A stretch of 64,000 nt of DNA, taken from contig OZ024740.1 in the NCBI GenBank assembly GCA_964016885.1, positions 184,016,001-184,080,000 on the forward strand, written 5' to 3'. Shown piece by piece: positions 412 to 60,166 of this stretch. Source of the stretch: Eledone cirrhosa (taxonomy: Eukaryota). Position numbers and translations under genes: made by a program. Below the pieces are notes generated by a model. That model worked only from the letters and a program-made list of their open reading frames with translations. It made no database searches and was not told where the DNA came from. Every line of letters begins with the position of its first letter. The stretch's first letter is position 1.

Positions 412-3400
412 AGAGAGAGGTGAGTGATTTCTTTTCCTCTTCTGATAACTTTTCAGCACCAACATGGCTAATATAAGAATTGGATCTGTGAATGTACGCG
501 GCCTGGGGATGCCCTGGAAACAGGGCAAACTCTTAAACGACCTCAGGTCGCACAGCATGGATGTAGTTGCCATTTGCAAGTCCAGGATCCACAGCGAGCG
601 ACAACGGGACCACATCTTCGACGACTTTGAGATCTAACCATCTCTCTGTCAGCCGGGAGGTGGAGGTGGGGTTGCCGTTTTGCTGCGGAAACACCTGGAC
701 CTCGTAACACAGACGGTACATCTGGACTCGGAGGGTCGACTGGTAGTCCTAGACGTTGACGGTAATGAAGGTGGAGCATTCAGGCTGGTGGCCGCATATG
801 CCCCATCCGGGACACCGCGGCCAGACTTCTTCAAACGTCTAGAGACTTTTCTGTGAATGTCCCGCTCCCTGCTGTTAGTGGGGGACTGGAATGGAATCCT
901 AGATGCACGTTAGGACTATGCCGATAGAGGAGGGTGTAACAGCCTCAAACAGTTAATCGGCCGATTTGACCTGGCCGATAGATATCGACTAGATTTTCCA
1001 ACTGTGTCACTGTGGACGTGGACTAATCTCACGGAACATCTAGATCGTAACTAGATAGGGTTCTAGTTAGAAAGAAGGATAGGGACCTGTTTAGCTGTCC
1101 ACAAATGTTCATGGTTGCCTATTCAGATAACAAATTAGTGACCTGCTTAGTCAACCTTGACAAAACCCATAGACAGGGACCCAGCTACTGGAAGCTGAAC
1201 TTGTCGTTACTGACATGCAAAGCCTTCAGTAGACGGATTAGCACTTTAGTTAAGCACCACTTGACGGGGGCTATTGACAACAACATATGGTGGTACTCTC
1301 TCAAGAGGGCAGTTAGATTAGACTCGATAGGTTTTAGTAAAGAATTAGTGTGTTAGATAGAAATAAGACCGAAAAGGAACTGGTAGATAAAGTAGAAGAG
1401 GCACTTGGGAGTGGCAACATAGCCAGAGTGCTAGCGACGAGAACGGCCTTGGATCAGTTCTTCGACGCAAAGCATGAAGGTTACGTTGTCAGAAGAAGAA
1501 TACGTGCTCTGGGAAACGAGGGAGCCAAAGTTGTTAGCTGGGCCCGAGTGACGGAGGCGAAAAGTGGCAACAAGTCCACGATTCGGTCTTTGAAGGACCA
1601 AGACGGACGCGTGACACGTGATCCGAAGCAAATGTGCGCGGCCTTTCAGCGGCACTTTGCTCAACTGTTCGGTCAGGGCGGCGCGCCGGGAGGGGATATG
1701 GATTTCGATTCATACCTCGACGGCCTACCGCGACTCTCGGACAGCGAGGCGAAGTTCTGCGAAAGGTCGATTTCGGCCGCTGAGATAGGCGACGCGCTGA
1801 GCCAATGCGGCAAACGCAAATCTCCAGGTATCGACGGTCTACCCTACGAAGTTTACGTAGCAATCCCGGACTTGTTCTCCCGTCTCCTGGAAGCGGTCTG
1901 CTGCAACTGGCAGCAGAACGGGAGTATTCCCAGTTCTGTGACCAAGGGCGTAATTAGGTTAGTCAGGATGGACGATAAGAAGGGGGATGACATAGGCAAC
2001 TTCCGGCCCATAACTCTGCTCAGCACATACTTACAGATTTTGGCCAAGGTGTTGGCAAAGAGGCCGGCGCTTGTCGTCGAAAACCTGATGGGAGAAGCGC
2101 AGACATGCGAAATTCCGAACAAGTCCATACACGACAACCTCCACCTCTTGCGATACATCATAGAGAGGGTAGGGTGTGAACCCGGCTTCGGTGTCCCCCT
2201 GATCAACTTGGATAAGTCTAAGGCTTTCGATAGGGTTGACCATCGTTACCTGGATGTGGTGCTCGAGGCGGCAAGCTTCGGTCCCGTGTTCAGGGGCTGG
2301 ATTGCTGCAATGCACAACAGCAACAACTGCTCAAAAGTCAAGGTGAACGGCAACCTCTCGGAGCTGTTCCATATCACGCGATCCATCCGACAGGGATGCC
2401 CTCTCTCCTCCCTTCTGTACGTACTGTCTCTCGATCCACTACAGCGGAAGCTGGAGCTATTGCAGGGAATCCATTTGGAACCGGGACTGCGAAAAGGGGC
2501 GTCGGCCTACGCCGACGACTTGGCAGTAATGGTGTCGAGCACCTGGCAGATCGGGGAGATTGGCACCTTACTGGAAGAATACGAAAGTTTCAAAGGAGCG
2601 TAGCTGAACCGGGACAAATCCGTCGGTTTGCAACTCGGAACGTGGAGAGGCAAACCGATGCCTTCCGATGACGTCGTCGGACGCTGGACGGAAGGACCGG
2701 TAAAGCTGCTCGGGGTCTGGTTTGGTCCTGACCTCCAGGTGGAGAGGAACTGGAACGAGGTGACGGCCAAGGTGTTTGCGCTCACCCAGAAGTGGGCCGA
2801 GTGCAAACTATCTTTGAAAGGTCGAGCGGAGGTGGCGAACACTTTTATAGCGTCCGTCATCTACTACCGCTTGACCGTTGCGCCTTGTCCAGCCAAAACA
2901 CTCACCAAAATGGAGCGCGCGCTCTTCCAATTCAATTCCTTAGGAAGAAAAGGGTTCCTTTGGTGAGAAGATCCATCTGCTGCCAACACCATTCAAACGG
3001 AGGGCTGGGGATACCGCGGCCGACACGCGCTCAGGCTGCGGCACCTCCAGGTATTTCTCACCAGACAACCAGTGTGTGCCCCGTTCGTGAGGCGAGCCTT
3101 CCCACGACTCGTCTCGGTAACCGAGCTGCAGACCTGGGTCAAGCAAAGACCGAGGAAAATGGGCGACTGGCATATCGAATGTGCTCAGGGGCTCACTGTC
3201 CTCTGACAAACGGACCCGGCGATCAGTGGAGATTCCACTTCGACTTTCTATAGTGGGTTGGTCCGCAGCAAGAAAGACGACACGCTCGGAGAAACTCTAG
3301 GCGTAGAGGAGGACGAACTGGCCAGTCTGTTCGGTAGAACTTTCCGCCTGGGACCAATGGATATCTTCCAAAAGTCCCTGGCCTGGCAGTGCTACAGAGG

Positions 3401-4764: not shown

Positions 4765-4944
4765 TATTTTATCGTATGTATATGTATATATATGTATATG
4801 TGTATATGTATATATGTATATATATATATATATATATGCATATATATGTATATATATATGTATGTATATATATATATTATTTTTTATATATGTGTGTGTA
4901 TGTGTGTGTGTTTGTGTGTGTGTGTATGTGTGGGTGTTTGTATA

Positions 4945-5093
4945 AATGTAGTATAGTATATTTTATAATATACTGTATGTTTATTTAAAAACATCTCGAA
5001 GACCATTCGCTACGGACTTTTAAATAAACATACAGTATATTATCAAATATACTATACGTACATTCATATAAACAACGCTATTTCAGAGCACCA
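4945..5093. repeat. Foldback fragment of the 26-kb repeat family
   Basis: tatagtatattttataatatactgtatgtttatttaaaa is followed by its reverse complement; ends in cgctatttcagagcacca, the reverse complement of the unit start ggtgctctgaaatagcg. Confidence 0.8.
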
Positions 5094-5313
5094 ATAATAA
5101 TAATAATAATAATAATGATATATATATATATATATATTTGAGAAAAGAGTCGGAGTCCCGACGGCTAGAACCAAACAGTTTGTTTCTAGCTGTCGAAACG
5201 GCCGGAGCTCAGCCGTCGGTGTCCTGACTATTTTCCTATTATCCTGTCTACTACCCTAAGTATCGAGTGCTCTGGTGCGTTATAGTCCACCTGGTTCCTT
5301 ACCACACTTTTTT

Positions 5314-6326: not shown

Positions 6327-6372
<46 letters not shown>

Positions 6373-6877
6373 TTATCTTAATAGGCATTTGAACCGTCAA
6401 CAGGCTGCGGTTCGCACACACATCCCTGCTGACCATTATCACAACAACGAACTTCTTTACTACTACTACACGCACACACACACACACACATATTTGTCTT
6501 GAAAGACTTATTTTTCAGTGACTTCTCAATCAGCCGAGACAAGCCTACATTTGGCGCAAAATCAATTTTTAACATTCACATGACCTCTACCGACCAATCA
6601 AAATTCTTTAGACCACAATAATTTTTTCATACATCTGGAGCCACTTTTTTTTACATAAAACAGCTAGAATTTTCAAATCTAATCAGATTAGAGCAAACAT
6701 CACGGACGCTCTATCTCAAAATTATTTTTGAAAAGCATTAGAAATGCGCAACCGGTAAAACTTAAAACCAAAACTGAATACTAACCAATACTATTACTAA
6801 TTTTTACTTATTCCTAATTAAACTATTTTTCACTGGGAACAATTTGGCAGCATTTTCTTTTCCTTTTACCAATATAT
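6212..6877 (+). repeat. 5' pseudo-LTR of the Penelope-like element
   Basis: Direct repeat of 11066-11750 (cttctccgtataagacaagag ... ccttttaccaatatat). Confidence 0.92.
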
Positions 6878-6939
6878 CATAACTCGTGTGTTACACCTCT
6901 ATTCTTTTAAATATCATATCCTCACACGAGATACAGAAA

Positions 6940-9900
6940 ATGCCAACAAAATCAGATACAACTCTTATCAACACAAATGAAGAGATTCTACAGGAACTCA
7001 AGAAAATCAACACCAACCTATCTGTGCTGGTCGACAAACTTGACTCCACAAATGAGGAAACCGTCACCGGATACAAACCCTCCGAAATCGACGATAACAT
7101 ACAAAACCTTTGCGATACTTTCCAAATAATGTTCACTACTACCAACCCAGGAAAAACCAACGAAGTACAATATGAGATTGATTCATACGAAATGAAAATT
7201 CGAACAATTCCAAAATGGAACAAATCCCTCAGAGACAGAAAGTTCTCATTCTGGAAGATGATACAAAATCACAACAAAGCGGAGATATATGAAAAATGGC
7301 TTAACTCAACCCCTCTAACTCTCCCCCGTAAAATACAAATAAAGTCCATTCCAAATGAACCTGAACCTCAAAGACACCTTAGGGAAAGAATGGCATTGGA
7401 AAAAATGAAGACAGAAATTGAACATCTTAAATTGAGGGCCCAGACAAATGAGGATTAAATCAAAACCATCGATGAAGAGATCCTCCTGGAAATCAACAAC
7501 AAAACTGAAGGCCCCAAGGTAGAGAAGATCTCTAAATTATGGAAAGGGGACTGCAACAGAGAAGAACTGAAATCCTTCAACGCTGGGAAAAAAGGGCCGC
7601 TTAGTTCCTACACTATGAATCGACTTTTCAAACGGATTACACCTCCAAAAACCCGTACATAAAAATAGGAAAACACATAACTGAACCGCACAACAACTTC
7701 GCAAACCCCCCAGCCACTAATAAAAGAAGAAGGAAGCACCACACCGAAGATGAACTTCCCAACCTCGCTACCATAAGAAGGAACAAAAACACTAGAAATC
7801 ATCTCCCCCAGAATGACATTTACAACTTTCCCCCTTCAAGGAGACACCATACCAAATCACTAAACTACTACGCGGATGCCTCATCGTCAAACATAGGGAA
7901 AAGATACCACCACCATGATAGATGTAACAACTACCCCGCTTCAAGGGGACAGCAAGGTAATTTAGATTTTCTCAACTCTCACTTCCACAATACACAACAA
8001 ACCCACACCACACGATACAACCAACAACGTAGGCTACCTATAACACCACAATCCAACATGGCACATAGAAACACACATCCATACTCGCAGTACAGGAACA
8101 CCCCATTCAATCTACAACCACGAACCCGAACCACATTTTACAACAACAAGGAATATGACAAACACAGGAGACCACTTAACATCAGCAGACAACCCCTCTA
8201 CACCAACCATTTTTTAGACACAGCACACAGATACAGGCAAACAAAATACCACAAGACGGAGGAGAAACCGAGAGTAATAAAAATTATCAATCTAACTAGT
8301 GCAGATCCAACACCCAACCTTATCAACTTACTCTCCAAAGGTCTTAAATTCACACCGACCCCACTACGTCCTAACTACTAGGAAATGAAGGAAGACATCA
8401 CAGACCTCTGTAGAAAGTTACGACTCAGTGAAGAACTATTCGACCAGTACAATGAAGATGAATCATTAGCCAGAAATAGAAGCAATTACACCCCATCAAA
8501 AGGTAGAATTAAAATCCTGGACCAATTCTGTGAATACATCACAATCTTCCCTTACCAACACTTGCACAAACAGAAACACAAGCCAAACCTCAACAAGAAA
8601 TAATGGGAAGAATTAAATAGATTAAAAACCGACAGAACCATTACAATTAAAGAGGCTGATAAAGGGAGTACAGTAGACCTAATGGAGACAGAATTCTCTA
8701 TCAACTTAGCGCTCTCCACTTTGGAAAACGAAACATACTACGAAAAGGCTGAACACTACAATCAACAGATAATTATGAGAAATCTAAAAACTCTGATCAA
8801 CCAATACAAAGAAAGACTCACTAACAAGGAATTCAGCTTCATCACAGACTTCACAAGTAAATCCAGCCTTTTCTACGGTATCCCTAAAGTAGATGAAAGC
8901 GAATTAATAAGTATGGCATGCAATGGAGCCACCGACATAGTCATCAATGTCCCCTCACCCAATGATCTCAAATTAAGACCTATAATAGCAGGCCCCACTT
9001 GCGAAACCCACCGCCTTAGCAACTTCATTGTTACCCTTCTCAAGCGTTTTCTCAAACACATCAAAAGCTATATAAGGGACGACCTAGATATTCTCAATCA
9101 CATCCCTAATATGCCCCTTTCTGAACAAACCCTACTAGTGACGTTCGATGTAGTCAACCTATACTCCAACATCCCCCACAATCTAGGAATAGAAGCTATC
9201 CAATTCTGGCTGGATAATTACCACAATTAACTCCCACAACGCATCAAAAAATAATTCGTGATAGAGAGACTCAAATTTATCTTGGAGAACAATTACTTCG
9301 TTTTCAATAACAAACCCTACAGGCAGAAATCTGGGACCGCTATGGGAACGAAAACAGCCTCCACTTATGCTAACCTAGTCATGGGATACCTGGAAATCAC
9401 CCTCTACACTAAAGTACTAAACAAATTTGGAAACACTCTCCACTTACACATAGAAAGGAACTGGAAGCGATATCTAGATGACTGCTTCATCCTTTGGAAC
9501 GAAAACATCGAGAAACTTAAAGAATTTCACACCCTTACAAATGGGCTCAACACGAATATTAACTTCACGATGGAATACAGCCATCAACAACCCCCCTTCC
9601 TCGACATCCTCATTAAGATCCATAACAAAAAAATCGAAACAGACATATACTACAAGCCCACAGTCTCCAAGCAATATCTTCCTTTCAACTCTTGCCACCC
9701 TAGATACGTTAAAATTAATATTCCCTACAACTTGGCCAAGAGAATCTGTACTATAGTCCTCAATAAAAACACCTGCTACTTACGGCTGCAGGAACTAAAG
9801 GACACACTCATAGGCAGGGACTACCCTGCATCACTAATTGACAATGGAATCCAACGTGCCCTAAAACTCAGTACCCAGGACCTTTGACACCCTAAAGTAA

Positions 9901-10525
9901 ATCAACCGAAACTAAAAGCTCTTCCATACATCTCCACACACAACCCCTCGACAATGAGGCCTTTGACACCATCCTCAAGAACATCCCTGTATTGAAAAAG
10001 GACCATAGAATGAACCAAATCCTACGAACACACGATATCATAAAGGGCAAAAGACAATCGAAGTCAATGAAAAACATCCTAACATATGCCAAAGTACTGC
10101 CAACCACAACAACGAAAACCACAGTAAAACAATGCGATAGACCCAATTGTGGCATATGCATCAACCTAATAGAGGGTTCGGAATTCTATTTCAAAGAAGG
10201 ACAACGTTTTATAGTAAAACACAATTTCACATGCGCATCAGAAAATCTAATATACGTATTAACTTGCTCAGGTTGTCGAGAACAACACATAGGCCAGACC
10301 AAAAACAGCCTCCGCAAACGCATGACTGTCCATAGATCCCAAATTAAAATACGGGAATACAGGAAAATACCACTGAGCGAACACATGTGCCGCCCAAAAT
10401 CCTCCCAATTTCAGAATCTTTCCCCTCTACAAATTTAAAGATAATGCCACCCACACCCAGCGCATCAGCAAGGAATCTCACTTTATTTACAAATACGGAC
10501 CCCGTCTAAACACTTCTCCCTAAGA
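6940..10525 (+). pseudogene. Disrupted PLE coding region: long N-terminal helical/low-complexity segment, RT, Zn-finger linker, GIY-YIG endonuclease
   Basis: ORF fragments 6886-7458, 8058-8381, 8385-8603, 8682-9230, 9258-9887 and 9992-10438 are broken by stops and frameshifts. Confidence 0.88.
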
Positions 10526-11065
10526 CGAACCCACAACATACACACGTCAACATACATACCTACATCAGCATACATCTCTATCCACATATAAACACACATG
10601 TTCGATGGTGCAACACAAATATACACAAATTTGCATACCTTTTGATGTCTATAGATATAAACGTGCCCACACACACACACATACATATACGCACACATGC
10701 ATTGCACACTGATGGGCACATAGATATTTGTACACAAGTATTCCAATACGGCAATGCCTAATGGATTTCCCTTGCAGTACGTACAATATGGACACTCACA
10801 CACACCTTGGTATTATGCCAATACTATATATCATTTCACACCTTTTATTATTAAGGTTTTTGATGTTCTATTGAGAGAATCGTTTTTACTGAAAATATCG
10901 AATAATGTACACCATTGTTACCAGTATCACAAACATATTGCCCCACCCCCCACACAGACATTCTCACACACACACACACATATATACACACACACACATA
11001 TATCTATACACACACTTACACACGCGTACAATAACTTACAAAGAGACATATACACACACACACAC

Positions 11066-11175
11066 ACACACTTCTCCGTATAAGACAAGAGCTGAAAAAT
11101 ATCTTTTAACATGTTAAAATATCCGCCACACACGTACAGACACATTCCTACTAACCACGAATTACTCTGCTACAC

Positions 11176-11253
<78 letters not shown>

Positions 11254-11741
11254 ACTTGTCTTAATAGGCATTTGAACTTTCAACAGGCTGCGGTTCGCAC
11301 AACATCCCTGCTGACCATTATCACAACAACGAACCTCTTTACTACTACTACACACACACACATCTATTTGTCCTGAAAGACTTATTTTTCAGTGACTTCT
11401 CAATCAGCCGAGACAAACCTACATTTGGCGCAAAATCAATTTTTAACATTCACATGACCTCTACCGACCAATCATAATTGTTTTGACCACAAGAATTTTT
11501 TCATACATCTGGAGCCACTTTTTTTACATAAAACAGGTAGAATTTCCAAAACTAATCAGATTAGAGCAAACATCACGGACGCTCTATCTCAAAATTATTT
11601 TTGAAAAGCATTAGAAATGCGCAACCGGTAAAACTTAAAACCAAAACTGAATACTAACCAATACTATTACTAATTTTTACTTATTCCTAATTAAACTATT
11701 TTTCACTGGGAACAATTTGGCAGCATTTTCTTTTCCTTTTA

Positions 11742-25860: not shown

Positions 25861-26127
25861 GCTTAAGAGGGTGTTTGTATGATTGCAAATGAATCGAATG
25901 TTATTATTAATATTCGAAAAACTCAGATCTACGATATATATATATACTATTGACTCTTCATAATATATATATATATAAAATTAGAAATGGTGCTCTGAAA
26001 TAGCGATATATATATGAAGTGTATTTTGCAATACTCTGTATTTGTAATTAAAAGCATTTCGAAGACCTTACGCTATTGTTTTACAGTAGTGACAGTCTCA
26101 CATATTTTAAATTTTCAGCAAACAAGG

Positions 26128-26189
26128 GGAGATAAAGCTGACAGAGCTCTGTTTCGTACTTTCTGTTACTTATCAAAGCTAAGTACTCC
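26128..26189 (-). ncRNA. Type I hammerhead ribozyme, U3-A8 core variant (copy 1)
   Basis: GGAG tactt AGCT-TTGATAA-GTA(acagaaag)TAC-GAAA-CAGAGCTCTG-TC-AGCT ttat CTCC. Confidence 0.72.
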
Positions 26190-26449
26190 ACCTGTCTGCT
26201 GAAAACCATGAATGTTTGATTGTTATAGAATTCTAGTTGATAATTATGAACTGATTATACAGAGCGGTTGCCGGTCAAGCAGAAATTGAAAATTAGAATT
26301 GGTGCTCTGAAATAGCGATATATATATATATGAATGTATATATAGTGTATTTTGCAATACACTGTATGCTTAATAAAGAGCATTTCGAAGACTTACGCTA
26401 TTGTTTTAGAGTAGTGACAGTCTCACTAACTTTACATTTTCAAACAAGG

Positions 26450-26511
26450 GGAGATAAAGCTAACAGAGCTCTGTTTCGTACCTGTTGGTACTTATCAAAG
26501 CTAAGTACTCC
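26450..26511 (-). ncRNA. Type I hammerhead ribozyme, U3-A8 core variant (copy 2)
   Basis: GGAG tactt AGCT-TTGATAA-GTACC(aaca)GGTAC-GAAA-CAGAGCTCTG-TT-AGCT ttat CTCC. Confidence 0.75.
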
Positions 26512-26879
26512 ACCTGTCTGCTGAACATCATGAATGTTTGATTCTTATAGAATTCTAGTAATAATCATGAACTGATTATACAGAGCGGTTGCCGGTCAAG
26601 CAAAAATTGAAAATTAGAATTGGTGCTCTGAAATAGCGATATATATATATGAATGTATATATAGTATATTTTGCAATACACTGTATGCTTAATTAAAAGC
26701 ATTTCGAAAACCTCACGCTATTGTTTTAGAGTAGAGACAGTCTCACTTACTTTACTTTTTCAGAGCACCAATTCTAATTTTCAATTTCTGCTTGACCGGC
26801 AACCGCTCTGTATAATCAGTTCCTGATTATTACTAGAATTCTATAAGAATCAAACATTCATGATTTTCAGCAGACAGGT

Positions 26880-26941
26880 GGAGTACTTAGCTTTGATAAG
26901 TAACAGAAAGTACGAAACAGAGATCTTTCAGCTTTATCTCC
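26880..26941 (+). ncRNA. Type I hammerhead ribozyme, U3-A8 core variant (inverted copy, stem III damaged)
   Basis: GGAG tactt AGCT-TTGATAA-GTA(acagaaag)TAC-GAAA-CAGAGATCTT-TC-AGCT ttat CTCC. Confidence 0.62.
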
Positions 26942-28606
26942 CCTTGTTTGCTGAAAATTTAAAGTAAGTGAGACTGTCACTACTCTAAAACAATGGCATA
27001 AGGTCTTCGAAATGCTCTTAATTAAGCATACAGTGTTTTGCAAAATACACTATATATACATTCATATATATATATATATATATTTCTTTGTTATTTTGTA
27101 CATATTTTTAAAACAAACTAAAATTGTTAAACTAATATCTTATGAAAAATATATAAATTTTTGTTGTAGTGCTTAGATTATCTTGCTATCAGGCATTTGA
27201 AACTAGGTGAGCTAGAGCCTAACAACGGCAATACCAATCATAATGATGATGATACAATAACATTAATAATTATTGTTTGTCTGTAATGCAAGTATTTGAT
27301 AAAACAAACGTTTTCATTTTATTTTAATTTTTCCACTTTTTGAAGTTAATGTCAGCTTAGTAATTTCAGCATTGTGCAACGTTTACTAGTATTATTTGAA
27401 AAGGCAGATTTGAACATTATATGCCCCCTATCAATCGAAGGTTTTATATATTCTGATCATATTCTCAGACCTGCCAACCTCCAAAAACCAAAACGGCGAG
27501 TATCATGACAAAACGTGCCCCAAAACGAGGAGAAATGACGAAGAATAGGCGGAGTTTACATAATGAAAGCTATGCCCAGTTTCACAAGAGAAGACGCATC
27601 TCAGCCAGTCCAAAGTGTGTGGGAGATCTCCCTATCGGACGAGGACATTTGACAGGTCTGTATTCTTACTCGTTCCATTACCATTTGCCGGTTTCATGTG
27701 TTTCAGATGTCGAGGTACTCATTTATACTGTTATGTCAAACACTGCTACACAACAACTAGAAACCAATGAATCCAGTGATAGCTTAAGCAATTTCCTCCT
27801 GTCAAGAGGCAAGCTTTTGAATTGATTTGATTTGTTTAAGTAATTCAAAAACCATCTTATAACAGATTTCTGCTGTTAATTTTCTTTCAGTCTTCTTTGC
27901 ATCAAAATATTTAATAGCAAAAAATTGAACACAATTCTAAAATCAGAAAAGAGAGAACATTATTCTTAATTAAAGAAACGTTAAAAGTTAAAGAAGGAAA
28001 ATAAAATAAAAACTAACAAGCAAAAACCCAACAACATCTAAAGAAATAAAGAAATTAATGAATGAATTAAATGAAAAATAAATATAGAAAAACATTAAAA
28101 ATAAAAAAATTCAGTTTGTAAAATGTAAAGTGAAGTTCTGTTTGGCTCTGATGCTATCTGACATTTCCCGACAAAACAAATTAAACTTACAAATTAGACA
28201 AATTAAACAAAAATGACCACAGCATCAGGCATTAACAATTTGCTCTGGAGTAATGCTATTAAAATCAAATCTAAATTTTCTGTCTCTCTTCTCGATATCA
28301 TCAGGGTAGTGTTAAATTACAATTTCTTTCTGGAATTGCAAATTTCAAATCCAACATCTTACAAAAAAGGCAAAAGAAAAATAAATAAAAGGAAGGAATG
28401 AAAATAAGGAAAAAGAAGTTTAAAGAATTGAAGAGGTTTCATATTGGTTTCTAAATGCAAAACGCGTAATATGCTTTTTTCTACTTAAACTTTTCAAGGA
28501 TAATTTAATTTTCTTTAAGAAATTCCATATTAATTACACGCTAACACTAAGCTAAAGAAACAAAATAACTATCATTTTCTGTGTTTGTGGTTTATATAAA
28601 TTAATA

Positions 28607-30554: not shown

Positions 30555-31002
30555 GTATTTGCCTGGTCTTTTGAATACACTTGCTCAGTAAATGATTTAT
30601 TTCCAGCCCTGATTTACACATTTCATTGATATGTTAATTTCCATATCAAAACCTCTTTTTCATACATAGAACATTTTAGAAATGTTCAGTCACGTGACAG
30701 CATATTGAGCGGTGAAACGTGTAGCTCCTGGAAGCATCTGTCAGTCGGACTCGTATGTTACACTGGTTAATGAAACTAAGAACTTTTCTTATTATGCTTT
30801 GTCTCTACGACACAATATCTGCCTGTTCTTTAGATACAAGGGAATTGTGTGCATTCATAAGATACTTATTATTTAAGCTAGCATACTAATACTGAAAAGA
30901 ACTTATATACACACATCGCATTCATTTTATTTATTGTAATTAATATTTGAGCTATTGTGTACTTGTAGTAATGTTAAGATACCATTATGTAGTGAATATA
31001 TA

Positions 31003-31186
31003 CGGTGGATTGGCAGAGTTGGTAGAGGGTTGGGCATGCTTTCCAGCATAGTTTCGTCCCTTTACGATCTGAGTTCAAATCCCGCCAAGGTTAACTTTGC
31101 CTTTCATCCTTACGAGGTCGATGAAATAAAGTACCAGTAATGTTCTGGGTAATTGCCGGCCTTGTGCCGAAAATAGAAACAATTAT
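31003..31186 (+). mobile_element. SINE, first of a tandem pair
   Basis: Matches consensus, subtype ttccagcatag..cgtccctttacgatctg. Confidence 0.9.
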
Positions 31187-31199
31187 GTAGTGAATATAT

Positions 31200-31379
31200 G
31201 GTGGATTGTCATTATCGGTAGAGGGCCGGACGTCATGCTTTGACGCATAGAGTTACGGCCCTTTCCATTCTGAGTTCAAATCCCGCCGAGGTAAACTTTG
31301 CCTTACGGGGTCGATAAAATAAAGTACCAGTAATGTACTGGTGTAATTGCTGGCCTTGTGCCAAAAGTAGAAACAATTA
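31200..31379 (+). mobile_element. SINE, second of a tandem pair
   Basis: Matches consensus, subtype tttgacgcatagagttacggccc. Confidence 0.9.
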
Positions 31380-32648
31380 TGTAGTGAATATACAAGAGAT
31401 TGTAATTTTGTATAGAGTACCCCGATCGTTTATTTGATAATGTCTTTTAGCCTTCTGATTTTCTCACATTTAAGTTTTCCCTTGTACAGTTTCACCACAA
31501 AATAAATATTAGCTGTACAACTATCAGAATAGTTATTTATTTGCAGAAATGTTATTTATTTGTTGCAGATTTCATGGAACAAGGAAGAAGAAAACATTTT
31601 ACTAAGTTGTAAAGATTTTGCCAGAGAAATCGCGTGTAATTCAGTATATTGTTATTGTACTTGTAGTTTTGTTTCTCAACTCTAGATCAACTGTAAGTGA
31701 GCCATTCTATGGTCAAAAGAAATCCAACTGGAGAAAGTATATGATTATATTATTTAAGATAACAGAGTTCGATTTGGTTAGAATTTCTAGCAGTTTATGC
31801 AACCATATTGATTCTTCATCATTGACTGAATATTGTAGTGTGAGGAATAGTTATATATTTATTCTGTCATTGAATGATAGTTTATATCACACAGACAATG
31901 TATAATAAATCGTTATGTAAAATTACTGCTTTTGTAAAAGAACAGTTCATTTGCACAGCGATTCACTAAAGTGACTGATATCTTTGATTTTGAAAGTTTG
32001 AACGATTCTATCTACATGTCTCTCTCTCTCTCTCCTCCCTCTTTCACAACCTCCTATTCCCTCTCTCGTTGAGGGCGTCTTCTGAATTATGTATTTCTGA
32101 AGCAACTCTATTTTCCTAAGCCAACTAACGAAGAAACTGGTACATTTACTTAGTGATTATTTATTGCTTCTTCGTTGAATAGGACGAAAGCTATACTTTG
32201 CTGATGAGGTTAAGTAAATAATATAGAATCATGTTCGGGGTTGTTTCCCGTATATAAATGTTTTTTAAAATATAGATTGAATGAGCTGGTTAATGATCAT
32301 TGCATTAAACAACTCAAAGAGCCCCGTGAGGTGGATTGGCTGCTTCAACACATCTCCCTCACCGTCCTCCAGAGCAATGTGTTCTACATCCTCTCGTCCA
32401 GAACCCGTAAGTTAGTTAGAGGTGGCAGATACTCATTCGGACGTCATGAATTTCCTCCTTTTTCCAGAAATTATTTCCATCTATCTATCTTTCTATCTAA
32501 CTATTTTAAAATTTAACTATTGATTTTTGGAATTTTTTTCCTTTTTTGGGGGTTAGGGGGGGGGGCTTTTATTTGCATTAAACACATTCATATACTTTAA
32601 AAAAGTATAAGACAAATTCTTATTTAACATTTTGTAATATTATATGAA

Positions 32649-47554: not shown

Positions 47555-50535
47555 TTACAGACACATACTCAGAGTAGGCCCATTCACTCGGGCTATTCTT
47601 GCCTCTCTCACCCATCTTTCAACAAAATGCTGGGAAGAGAGAACTTCCCTCTCTACCCTGATTTTCCTTTTCAAATGAAATTTGAAAAAGTTAATCAGAG
47701 CATCACCGAAGAGGTAAGTGCTCGTCTTCATCCCTTTCAAACGTGTCCACCATACTATCTCTTTCGCCATGGCCACCAGACAGATAAAAACTGCCTGCCC
47801 ATCCCGGCTAAAGGAGGAGGGCGGGGCAATCCTCACGATGGACTCAGATGATAGCTGGATCCGTCCTGCACGCGACAGCAGGTGTTCGACATAAACACAC
47901 AAGTCAGCAATGCTCAGACACTGGACGAGTGCGTGCAGGACGGTTTCGTCGCCCTGCGCGCATCGCGGACATGCCCGGCTGACGGCACTTCCATGCCTGT
48001 AGAGTTTATCCCGAACTGGCAAAGCTCCTCGGTAGCACCGCTAGGCCAGGGATTTCTGGAAGTTGTCCATAGGTCCCGGCACGAAAGTTCTTCCGAAGAG
48101 ATTGGCTAGTTGATTTTCGTCGGCGCCTGGAGTTTCCCCAAGTACGTCGTCGCTCTTCCCCTCCACTAATACTCTATAGAACGCCAAGGTGGAGTTTTCA
48201 CCGATCACATTGCCCGATTGGTTGAGGGCTGTGAGCGCCTGAAGACATTCCAGTCTCCAAGCGCTCCCTCTCGGTCTTCGCTTGACCCAGAACTGCAGCT
48301 CCGTCAAGGAGACAAGCTGGGGAAAGACGCGTCTAGCAAATGGCGACCACACCTGATCACCGTCGAGGAAGAGGTGGAGATGTCGTAGCATGAGCGCGTG
48401 TCTGCGCATCATCAGCCATGGCATTGCCAGCCCTCCACGTAGCGGGTGTTGACAGCAGACGGACCGCGTGACCATCGGAGCGCGTCCCTTCCACAAAAAG
48501 CGAAAGAGCAAACGCTCCAGCGCAGTCAAGTGGGGCTTAGGACAAAGTACGGGTAGTAGATGACGGACGTGATATACGCGTTAGCCACCTCCGCTCGACC
48601 TTTCAGGGATAGCTTCCTCTCCGCCCATTTCTGGGTGAGAGAAGCCACCCTGCTCGTCACCTCGTCCCAGTTTTTGTCCGTCTGGACGTCCGGACCAAAC
48701 CAGACCCCGAGCAATTTAACCGGTCCGTCCGTCCAGCGCCCGACGACGCTGTTGGACGGCATGGACCTGCCTCTCCAGGTGCCGATCTGCAGACCCACTG
48801 ACTTTTCCTGGTTGATCATTGCTCCTATCACCGCTTCGTATTCTCTTAGTGTAGTGCCGATCGCCTCGATGTGTTTGGCGTTCGACACCGCTACGGTGAC
48901 ATCGTCCGCATATGCTGACATGGATCTTCCGCATCCTAGTTCCGGCGGGACCCCCCTCATCGTTTCCAGTTTGTGGAGTAATGGTTGAGAGTCAATACAT
49001 ACAAGAGAGACGAGAGGGGACATCTTTTTCGGACCGAGGGCATGATGTTGAACGGTTCCAGAAGGTGACCGTTCACTCTCACCACAGAGCAGATGTCGCT
49101 GTGCATGGCAGCGATCCAGCCTCTGAAGACGGGCCCAAAATCAGCCGCCCTCAGGACCGCCGCTAGGTAACGATGGTCGACCCTATCGAAAGCTTTCGAC
49201 TGATCTAAATTGATCAAGGACCCACCCGTGCCAGGTTCCCTAGCTACCCCCTCTACGATGTATCGCATGAGGTGGAGGTTGTCGTGGATGGATCTGTCGG
49301 GAATGGCGCATGTCTGCGCCTCTCCCACCAGACCACCAACGACAAGCGCCAACATCTTCGCTAGCACCTTGGCCAAAATCTTGAACTCTGTGTTTAGCAG
49401 AGTCATGGGCCTAAAATTATCTATGTTATCCTCCTTGTTCGTATCCTTTCTAAGCAGCGCCACAGCTCCTCGGCTCACAGAGCTGGGAATTCTCCCGTTC
49501 TGTTGCCAGTTACTGTAGACGTCCGCCAAGAGGTTTCCGAACAAGTCTGGCATTTGTACGTAAAGTTCATAGGGCAGACCATCCAAACCAGGCGATTTAG
49601 CCCTTGTGCAGCCAGTCATTGCCTCCCTTACTTCAGCGGCTGTTATCAGATTTTCGCAACACTCCGCCTCAGTGGCCGAGAGCAGCGGCAGTCCTTCGAG
49701 GTGGACACTAAAGTCAATCCCTCGACCCGGCCCGCCGCTGCCCCCGAACAGCTGTGCGAAATATCACTGAAAAGTAATGACGCGTTTAGCTTCCAGTAGC
49801 CGGGTCCTCGTCTATGAAGCCTATTTAAGTCAAGCACACAGATCACAAATATGTGGTCCGTGTAGCTGACTATTTTGAATTGTGGACAGCCTATGCTAGA
49901 CCTGCTAGCCTATGCTAGACCAGCCTATCAGCCTATGCTGATCTGGATGACCCGATACGGTTTGTCCAAGCCCACATTGGCACATTCGGGAAATCCAATC
50001 GGTACCTGTCAGACAGTTCAAAACGCCTGAGCAGATTGGTGAGGCTCTTGCACCCTCCTCCCCTATCCGCCAATCCCACACAGTCCCAGCGTGCATCTAA
50101 GATCCCGTTCCAGTCGTCCACTAGCAATAAAGAGCGGGACGTTCCAAGAAAGGTCTCCAGAGGCCGGAATAAATCAGGCCGCCCTGCTCCTGTCGGAGCA
50201 TAGACGCCCATTAGCCTCAAAGATTATCCGTCTCCGCTGGTCACGTCTAGCACCACCAACTTACCTTCTGAGTCCAGGAAGATGGCCCGTATGGAGAGAT
50301 CCAAACCTCTCCGAAAAAGCACAGCAACTTCTTCCCCCGATCCCGGACCGCTGGGAGAATCGTACACATCGTAGCCGCCGAAGATCGCTGCGAAGGCTCG
50401 TGCTTCGGAGATCCTGGTCTCCCTGATGGCCACTACATCTATGTTTAGTGAACTAAGGTCGTTGAGCAGGTGGCCCTGCTTCCATGACGACCCCAGGCCA
50501 AGCGCATTTATGCTGCCTATTCTAAGTGAGGTCAT
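47555..50535 (-). pseudogene. Disrupted ORF2 (APE + RT) of copy B
   Basis: MTSLRIGSINALGLG, GVYAP, YWKLN, KSPGLDGLPYE, DQSKAFDRVDH, AYADD, CPRC...ETVLHALVQC. Confidence 0.92.
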
Positions 50536-59628: not shown

Positions 59629-59711
59629 ATATAGATGAGATTCTACAGGACTAGAACTGTTTCAACAACTGTTTCTAACGAATGAAACAGTTCTAGTCCT
59701 GTAGAATCTCA

Positions 59712-59718
<7 letters not shown>
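59629..59718. repeat. ~36-bp perfect hairpin
   Basis: atatagatgagattctacaggactagaactgtttca / tgaaacagttctagtcctgtagaatctcatctatat. Confidence 0.9.
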
Positions 59719-59796
<78 letters not shown>

Positions 59797-59799
<3 letters not shown>

Positions 59800-60050
59800 T
59801 TGGTGCTCTTGCATAGCGATATACATGTAAATGTACGTATTGTATGTAGAATGATATACGGAATGTTTCTGAAAAACATTTGAAGGCCTTTCGCTATGAA
59901 TTTTAGGAGGGTGACCAGCGTCACATACCTAGCCTCAGCATAAATAGGAGGAAGTAATCGGTTTTCACTTGTCAGAGTTTCTCAAGCTTATATATCTCCC
60001 TACCTTTGTTGAAGCTAAATTATGCTAGATTCTTATAGAATTCTTTGTAG
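59797..60050. repeat. Divergent copy of the 26-kb repeat unit, with U3-A8 hammerhead-like motif at 59947-59999 (-)
   Basis: Collinear blocks ggtgctct..atagcgatata, cattt.gaag.cctt.cgctat, gtgac..tcac, gattcttatagaattct. Confidence 0.72.
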
Positions 60051-60127
60051 AAACACCAATACAAACTTAATTTAAGCAGAACCAGCTACTGCTCCGTATG
60101 TAAATGAGTTTCATCAGCTCATAAGCA

Positions 60128-60166
<39 letters not shown>

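Follow-up and report, generated by a model that had tools for sequence, protein, structure and literature searches.

A decayed insertion of a protein-free, likely retrozyme-type repeat with a hammerhead remnant in Eledone cirrhosa

The window analyzed here is a stretch of 64,000 nucleotides of the Eledone cirrhosa genome (contig OZ024740.1, positions 184,016,001 to 184,080,000). Close to its end lies one copy of a noncoding repeat of about 320 nt, present as two pieces: a main arm that carries the remnant of a type I hammerhead motif and the upstream part of the unit, inverted in place (Table 1). This window copy sits between two TA microsatellites, (TA)40 and (TA)16, and terminates with the tail; its AT-rich site and tail correspond to the two positions at which insertions of a young subfamily of the same repeat have their fixed 3' ends. 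In the sister copy L002, the same two pieces (upstream ~75 nt and main arm) are collinear with 4 nt between them, and the inversion in the window looks like an internal-priming inversion. No open reading frame of ≥120 amino acids overlaps this locus or the related locus at 26 kb. Adjoining the (TA)40 flank is a small fold-back element in which a perfect inverted repeat of 36 bp encloses an 18-nt spacer (59629 to 59718).

Table 1. Copies of the repeat family in the window and parts of the window copy
Feature	Position	Strand	Remark
Main arm, one copy of the ~320-nt noncoding repeat (retrozyme type)	59797..60044	-	Old subfamily B; 84% identity to subfamily majority
Upstream ~75 nt of the unit	60054..60128	+	Inverted in place relative to main arm
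AT-rich end site and ~20-nt tail	59797..59835	-	Site 59835-59819; tail 59818-59797
(TA)40 flank	59714..59793		Insertion target
(TA)16 flank	60132..60163		Opposite side
Type I hammerhead remnant (U3-A8 core)	59947..60000	-	Predicted inactive
Stem I, 5' strand	59986..59991	-	4/6 pairs remain; second pair from core broken
Core nucleotides 3-9 (U3...A8 A9)	59979..59985	-	Private U7-to-G
Stem II, family register	59965..59978	-	A10.1/A11.1 unpaired like many sister copies; one further pair broken
GAAA and C17	59960..59964	-	Leftover around lesion
Stem I, 3' strand	59954..59959	-	Overlapped by the "stem III" of the first-pass annotation
Long outer helix, 5' arm	59999..60019	-	Hammerhead at helix tip
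Long outer helix, 3' arm	59928..59948	-	
Young subfamily A insertion	25989..27074		2.4 tandem units on minus strand and inverted arm
Subfamily A hammerhead motif	26441-26517	-	
Subfamily A hammerhead motif	26118-26195	-	
Subfamily A hammerhead motif	26874-26951	+	
Third family locus	4933..5097		Two short, opposite-oriented pieces of the unit's 3' part; without ribozyme

The first-pass annotation had described the locus as a diverged, collinear copy of a unit 33 kb away, and the homology was borne out. Positions 59797 to 60050 are collinear with the 26-kb unit (26301 to 26620), with a local alignment score of 109 compared with 24.6 ± 3.6 (maximum, 44.5) for 1,000 dinucleotide shuffles and an nhmmer E value of 6.7e-10. 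A search of the 3.0-Gb assembly from the window copy, in which the best 40 of 1,233 candidates were scored, gave at least 63 matches; among the matches listed, the best full-length relatives were 74 to 82% identical. The 26-kb unit belongs to subfamily A, which is young, and the window copy to subfamily B, which is considered old because its copies show a median identity of 87% and a maximum of 93% to the subfamily majority. Other repeats in the window include fragments of non-LTR retrotransposon reverse transcriptases (Pfam RVT_1 and zf-RVT) at 1341 to 2600 (plus strand) and 47558 to 49763 (minus strand) and two tandem 194-bp units at 30977 to 31392, which may resemble the tRNA-derived SINEs of octopus genomes.

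The family register of the motif was taken from an alignment of 50 subfamily B copies, 30 found with the window copy and 20 more with a sister. Their majority sequence combines stems I and II of 6 and 4 bp, respectively, with the core UUGAUAA, GAAA, a near-palindromic stem III of 13 nt, and a GUC site. Compared with its 49 sisters, the window copy has lost G12 and 11 to 12 nt, including the palindromic stem III and U16.1, and the loss of G12, stem III, and U16.1 is shared by none of them. In addition, stem I contains two mismatches, two of five stem II positions are unpaired, and in the family register G12 A13 A14 A15.1 does not directly follow stem II. A covariance model of 34 other copies, from which the window copy was excluded, gave the latter 34.5 bits with stem III aligned as a deletion, compared with 56.7 to 70.9 bits for the three motifs at 26 kb. 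Its 58-nt hammerhead region folds no better than shuffled sequences (z = -0.15), and a descriptor needing one stem I pair beside the core found no match in it. The outer helix still pairs (z = -2.27). The window copy is a decayed insertion from which the cleavage site has been deleted, and its hammerhead is predicted to be inactive. Stem III seemed to be a deletion hotspot (11 of the 50 B copies), but this reading was dropped, as 10 of these copies were recovered by the search seeded with the deleted window copy; furthermore, about five of the 11 look like a short-stem-III sub-lineage rather than deletions. L012, L015, L019, L022, and L200 are a probable sub-lineage of this kind within B, with a short 6-nt stem III resembling that of subfamily H.

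The letters that had been read as a variant ribozyme are present on the minus strand (60000 to 59947), and in a shifted register, with a 3-bp stem II, a 2-bp stem III, and a bulged C, they formally spell core positions 3 to 9, a 3-bp hairpin, GAAA, and UH. Nevertheless, it is highly improbable that the window copy is itself a selected, working hammerhead in that register. The core was said to be kept with only N7 changed; U3, U4, G5, A6, A8, and A9 are indeed present, but G12, stem III, and U16.1 are gone, and G7 is private to the window copy among the 50. Stems II and III, described as rewritten but still pairing, form a fold that costs +4.9 kcal/mol, with pair probabilities at the junction of ≤0.012. 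The proposed stem III consists of the leftover C17 and the 3' strand of stem I, the nucleotide taken for G12 (59966) belongs to stem II as position 11.2, and the extra unpaired C noted as a caveat is a symptom of the wrong register. The outer GGAG/CTCC helix is retained as claimed (pair probability, 0.63 to 0.68) and is the only helix of the proposed fold that forms. N2.1/N1.1 is C·C, so that stem I is unpaired beside the core, and matches mispaired beside the core were discarded by Perreault et al. (accessible text of PMC3088659). The lesion is unique among 50 copies, and an identity of 84% to the majority is like that of other decayed copies.

Eight subfamilies (A to H) of the repeat were found by searches from copies met by chance, each search scoring the best 40 candidates. 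Aligned copies number 43 for A, 50 for B, 25 each for C, D, E, and F, and 20 for G; H is represented by two loci. Five loci in sixty 10-kb stretches correspond to about 25,000 loci (95% range, 8,000 to 58,000), and a rescan of 55 dispersed stretches gave the same five. The units have periods of 310 to 322 nt, low GC content, and one hammerhead each, with tandems at 26011 to 26762 of the window and at L310. The family therefore has the size, composition, and tandem arrangement of a retrozyme (a 150- to 450-nt low-GC unit with one type I hammerhead), and its unit is too short to encode a reverse transcriptase. One H locus is a pure array of four cores with three identical 310-nt periods. The young H arrays, L310 (1 to 1320, plus strand) and L026 (880 to 1480, plus strand), share their stem I with subfamily B and have a canonical core with C3-G8. 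The motif is fully intact in 27 of the 43 A copies and, apart from 10.1/11.1, in one of the 50 B copies. RNA contigs from three runs of one sample contained relatives only, with no piece spanning the locus, and are not evidence on expression.

Covariation, which the first-pass annotation had proposed to look for across subfamilies, was scored on 34 copies of A to D (10, 8, 8, and 8 from sets of 50, 43, 25, and 25), picked from the tops of the lists; two B rows with gaps were passed over, and the D set contributed its two C-G copies. Pair counts were limited to A to D because the MAFFT alignment put E and F three columns out of register. In these copies 88.3% of cells pair, and 10 of 13 pairs show two-sided change, related copies being counted many times. 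The covariation score was 0.468, compared with at most 0.091 for slid partners. The two-sided pair count alone was not above that of letter shuffles (101 of 500 were as high), and RNAalifold recovered only stem III and an alternative hairpin. Stems I to III differ among all eight subfamilies, and stem III is palindromic or near-palindromic throughout. The locus had also been offered as independent support for the hammerhead at 26 kb, and at the level of the family this holds: the B majority and the remaining seven subfamilies retain a type I hammerhead whose stems differ yet still pair, U3-A8 included.

Structure-level selection, previously suggested for the window copy, does not apply to this decayed copy but does apply to the family, in which it acted on source elements. 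Within subfamilies, core and non-CpG flank identities are 0.922 versus 0.912 in B and 0.949 versus 0.976 in D. As the core is no better kept than the flanks, selection acted on the source elements while their copies decay neutrally, and compensatory change is therefore seen only between subfamilies. Rfam Hammerhead_HH9 (RF02275), which has the same stem sizes and a CAAAA-like loop 2, matched an A copy (24.5 bits; E = 0.049) and all four H units (23 bits; E = 0.0064) at the motif, far under its gathering score of 52. It did not match the window copy, and a scan of the window gave no hammerhead match at an E value of ≤5 and only microsatellite-driven microRNA matches. No Rfam hammerhead match was obtained for those loci of B, C, D, E, and F that were scanned. 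Copies of E and F scored weakly with the covariance model (26.9 bits at most), which missed the hammerheads of Penelope-like elements (PLEs). The lowest-energy fold of A, B, and D monomers is not the hammerhead; folded as a circle, the unit gave z values of -3.4 and -6.2. On this comparative evidence, the source elements of the family likely carried a self-cleaving type I hammerhead.

Among 33 distinct rows of the A to D alignment, the 3-8 pair is U-A in 23, C-G in 9, and unpaired in 1; by subfamily, it is U-A in A, B, D, and G and C-G in C, E, F, and H. On a tree built from the flanks alone, with 46 rows (at most six per subfamily, together with the window copy, two copies of the D set having C-G, and two of H), the pair switched at least four times, all forced by well-supported branches, although exchange of ribozyme modules between subfamilies could mimic this pattern. 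The neighboring 10.1-11.1 position is paired in A, C, E, F, and H, whereas in B, D, and G, three of the U3-A8 subfamilies, A11.1 stands opposite A, C, or U. It is paired in only 6 of 50 B copies and is A·A in 23 of 25 D copies and C·A or U·A in 12 and 7, respectively, of 20 G copies. Subfamily A is the exception, combining U3-A8 with G-C at 10.1-11.1. D differs from its C-G sister copies at 3, 8, 11.1, and one stem III base. L095 (1551 to 1628) and L101 (1623 to 1700) are intermediates between C and D, with C3-G8 and A10.1-U11.1 in an otherwise nearly D sequence.

The 10.1-11.1 pair changed state along with 3-8 in three of the four flips, and its absence in B, D, and G may lower activity. A tentative idea, which we regard as doubtful, is that the family forms a natural mutagenesis series of the hammerhead active site in which a coupled U3-A8/A11.1 variant, active or deliberately slow, would tune the balance between RNA that is cut and RNA that is reverse transcribed whole. 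The coupling is suggestive at most, as the PLE hammerheads of this genome combine U3-A8 with G-C, U3-A8 with U·U, and C3-G8 with U·U. No direct description of an A11.1 mismatch or of a cephalopod hammerhead family was found in the literature covered, subscription literature being mostly outside its scope.

The ends of insertions were analyzed at 27 subfamily A loci, chosen by their 3' half alone. Head-to-head inverted arms are present at 17 of the 27 loci, and 15 of these 17 pair an end at the AT site with an end in the ~30-nt tail. The 45 arms terminate at the AT site (21), at the tail (23), or internally (1). The cleavage site is crossed by 40 arms, and 19 are longer than one unit. Two arms start within 5 nt of the cleavage site, compared with 1.5 expected, so that these loci show no enrichment of 5' ends there. 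A linear cut monomer cannot serve as the usual template, whereas a circle or an uncut multimer can. The insertions show a PLE-like footprint, i.e., an inverted 5'-truncated arm, a one-ended tail, and a microsatellite target; PLEs are described as leaving an inverted 5'-truncated copy, a 30- to 40-bp tail at one end, and a microsatellite bias (Craig et al. 2021, bioRxiv 10.1101/2021.04.23.441226, in the text available).

Neptune-type PLEs with long frames for reverse transcriptase and endonuclease are present in the genome, with open frames of 844 to 1,096 codons in L311 to L313, and two of those inspected end in TTCA-(TA)n like the family. Three Neptune-type families carry in their terminal repeats a hammerhead with a short palindromic stem III, having U3-A8 with G-C (L311, L312, L319, and L330), U3-A8 with U·U at 10.1/11.1 (L251, L275, and L328), or C3-G8 with U·U at 10.1/11.1 (L280, L314, L315, L317, and L322). 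A terminal repeat homologous to the family was found at none of 50 GIY-YIG loci (50 of 150 listed matches, from 10,597 first-look candidates), where apparent matches were separate insertions or AT-repeat noise, and no reading frame for reverse transcriptase and GIY-YIG was linked to the repeat at the loci sampled. The window itself contains a decayed Neptune-type PLE (about 6370 to 11400, plus strand) with a reverse transcriptase, CxxxxCxxC linker, GIY-YIG domain, and direct terminal repeats among (CA)n. The descriptor found no hammerhead in it, and it was ruled out as partner, its terminal repeat having no match to the family. An unrelated repeat (L229, 3231 to 3294, plus strand; L325; and L318) has a type I hammerhead with a canonical core and a CUAG palindrome in stem III.

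The shared insertion footprint would also be expected if the repeat were a pLTR, the terminal repeat of an autonomous Penelope-like family, left solo in heavily 5'-truncated insertions. U3-A8 hammerheads do occur in the pLTRs of PLEs in this genome, and frog retrozymes are related to pLTRs (bioRxiv 10.64898/2026.07.22.740005, accessible part). However, arms longer than one unit run into another unit and not into coding sequence, and the H array consists purely of units. The first 110 loci gave no reverse transcriptase match, and a wider query set matched 20 family loci, most through non-PLE frames. A solo pLTR seems very unlikely. It is somewhat easier to suppose, but still unlikely, that the hammerhead fold was kept, at least in B, D, and G, for a structural role (recognition by reverse transcriptase, dimerization, or protection) with little or no cutting. 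These three subfamilies amplified despite the unpaired 10.1/11.1, copies are not truncated at the cleavage site, and PLE hammerheads are described as poor at cleavage in vitro (PMC4209133, in the portion available). Yet all eight subfamilies keep the catalytic nucleotides and a U-H site in which H is never G, and positions 3 and 8 always switch as a pair, a pattern that fits active-site geometry.

We therefore favor, with a probability of about 0.85, the reading that 59797 to 60128 is a single insertion, now decayed, from an old subfamily of a repeat of about 320 nt that encodes no protein and is likely a non-LTR retrozyme. Its own motif, without G12, stem III, and cleavage site, is predicted to be inactive; the source elements were likely self-cleaving, and their copying into (TA)n was likely the work of a Penelope-like (Neptune-type) reverse transcriptase/GIY-YIG protein. 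In the proposed cycle, a tandem source would be transcribed and its hammerhead would cut once per unit, probably aided by pairing of the stem III palindrome between two units, a fold indicated by covariation. The monomer would be ligated to a circle, or an uncut multimer would be used. A borrowed PLE protein would then nick (TA)n and copy from the AT-rich site through the cleavage site, often beyond one unit. This would yield two arms lying head to head, one stopping at the AT site and the other carrying a ~30-nt tail, the ends observed in subfamily A; inserted copies then decay neutrally.

U3-A8 hammerheads and animal retrozymes are already published, and the hammerhead of the present family has good comparative support. 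In the accessible parts of the following sources, natural hammerheads with U3-A8 covariation are described as active in vitro (Perreault et al. 2011, PMC3088659), about 1,300 PLE-related U3-A8 motifs are reported from Schistosoma mansoni (Cervera and De la Pena 2014, PMC4209133), and animal non-LTR retrozymes are given as 170 to 400 nt (Cervera and de la Pena 2020, PMC7229834). A PLE origin of retrozymes is argued by Li, Clavereau and Pollet (2026, bioRxiv 10.64898/2026.07.22.740005), in whose accessible text eight of nine frog retrozyme dimers lacked cleavage in vitro, and cleavage of PLE hammerhead dimers is summarized in the available part of PMC6765202.

Like metazoan non-LTR retrozymes as described in the accessible texts (PMC7229834; bioRxiv 10.64898/2026.07.22.740005), the family has a ~300-nt low-GC unit with one type I hammerhead and no reading frame, occurs as monomers to short tandems, and has a proposed mobilization by PLEs. 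Unlike them, it is mostly dispersed as one- or two-armed insertions in (TA)n, has U3-A8 in half of its subfamilies, and has a stem III palindrome of 6 to 16 nt. Expression as linear and circular monomer RNA is a feature of retrozymes; for the family, a circle is proposed as one of two candidate templates, and the window copy is broken. The compensated 3-8 swap and a palindromic stem III suited to dimers are shared with the U3-A8 PLE hammerheads of S. mansoni; the latter are minimal motifs that have one additional base between positions 9 and 10.1 and conserve the 10.1-11.1 pair (PMC4209133, same portion), whereas the family has stems I and II of canonical size, a long outer helix, both core versions, and N10.1 opposite A11.1 in three subfamilies. 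Neptune-clade PLEs share the inverted 5'-truncated arm, partial tandems, tail, and microsatellite targets and carry a hammerhead in the terminal repeat (bioRxiv 10.1101/2021.04.23.441226, as far as accessible). Unlike these elements, the family has no reverse transcriptase or GIY-YIG coding sequence and no homology to the terminal repeats of the 50 GIY-YIG loci.

As the window copy warns, a repeat that has decayed can still be read as a hammerhead when the register is wrong. The fixed insertion ends of the family help to test the copying of retrozyme circles by Penelope-type enzymes, which is proposed but not demonstrated in the accessible text of the literature cited. In addition, sister subfamilies a few core bases apart are natural pairs for determining the cost of U3-A8 and the tolerance, or coupling, of an unpaired 10.1/11.1.
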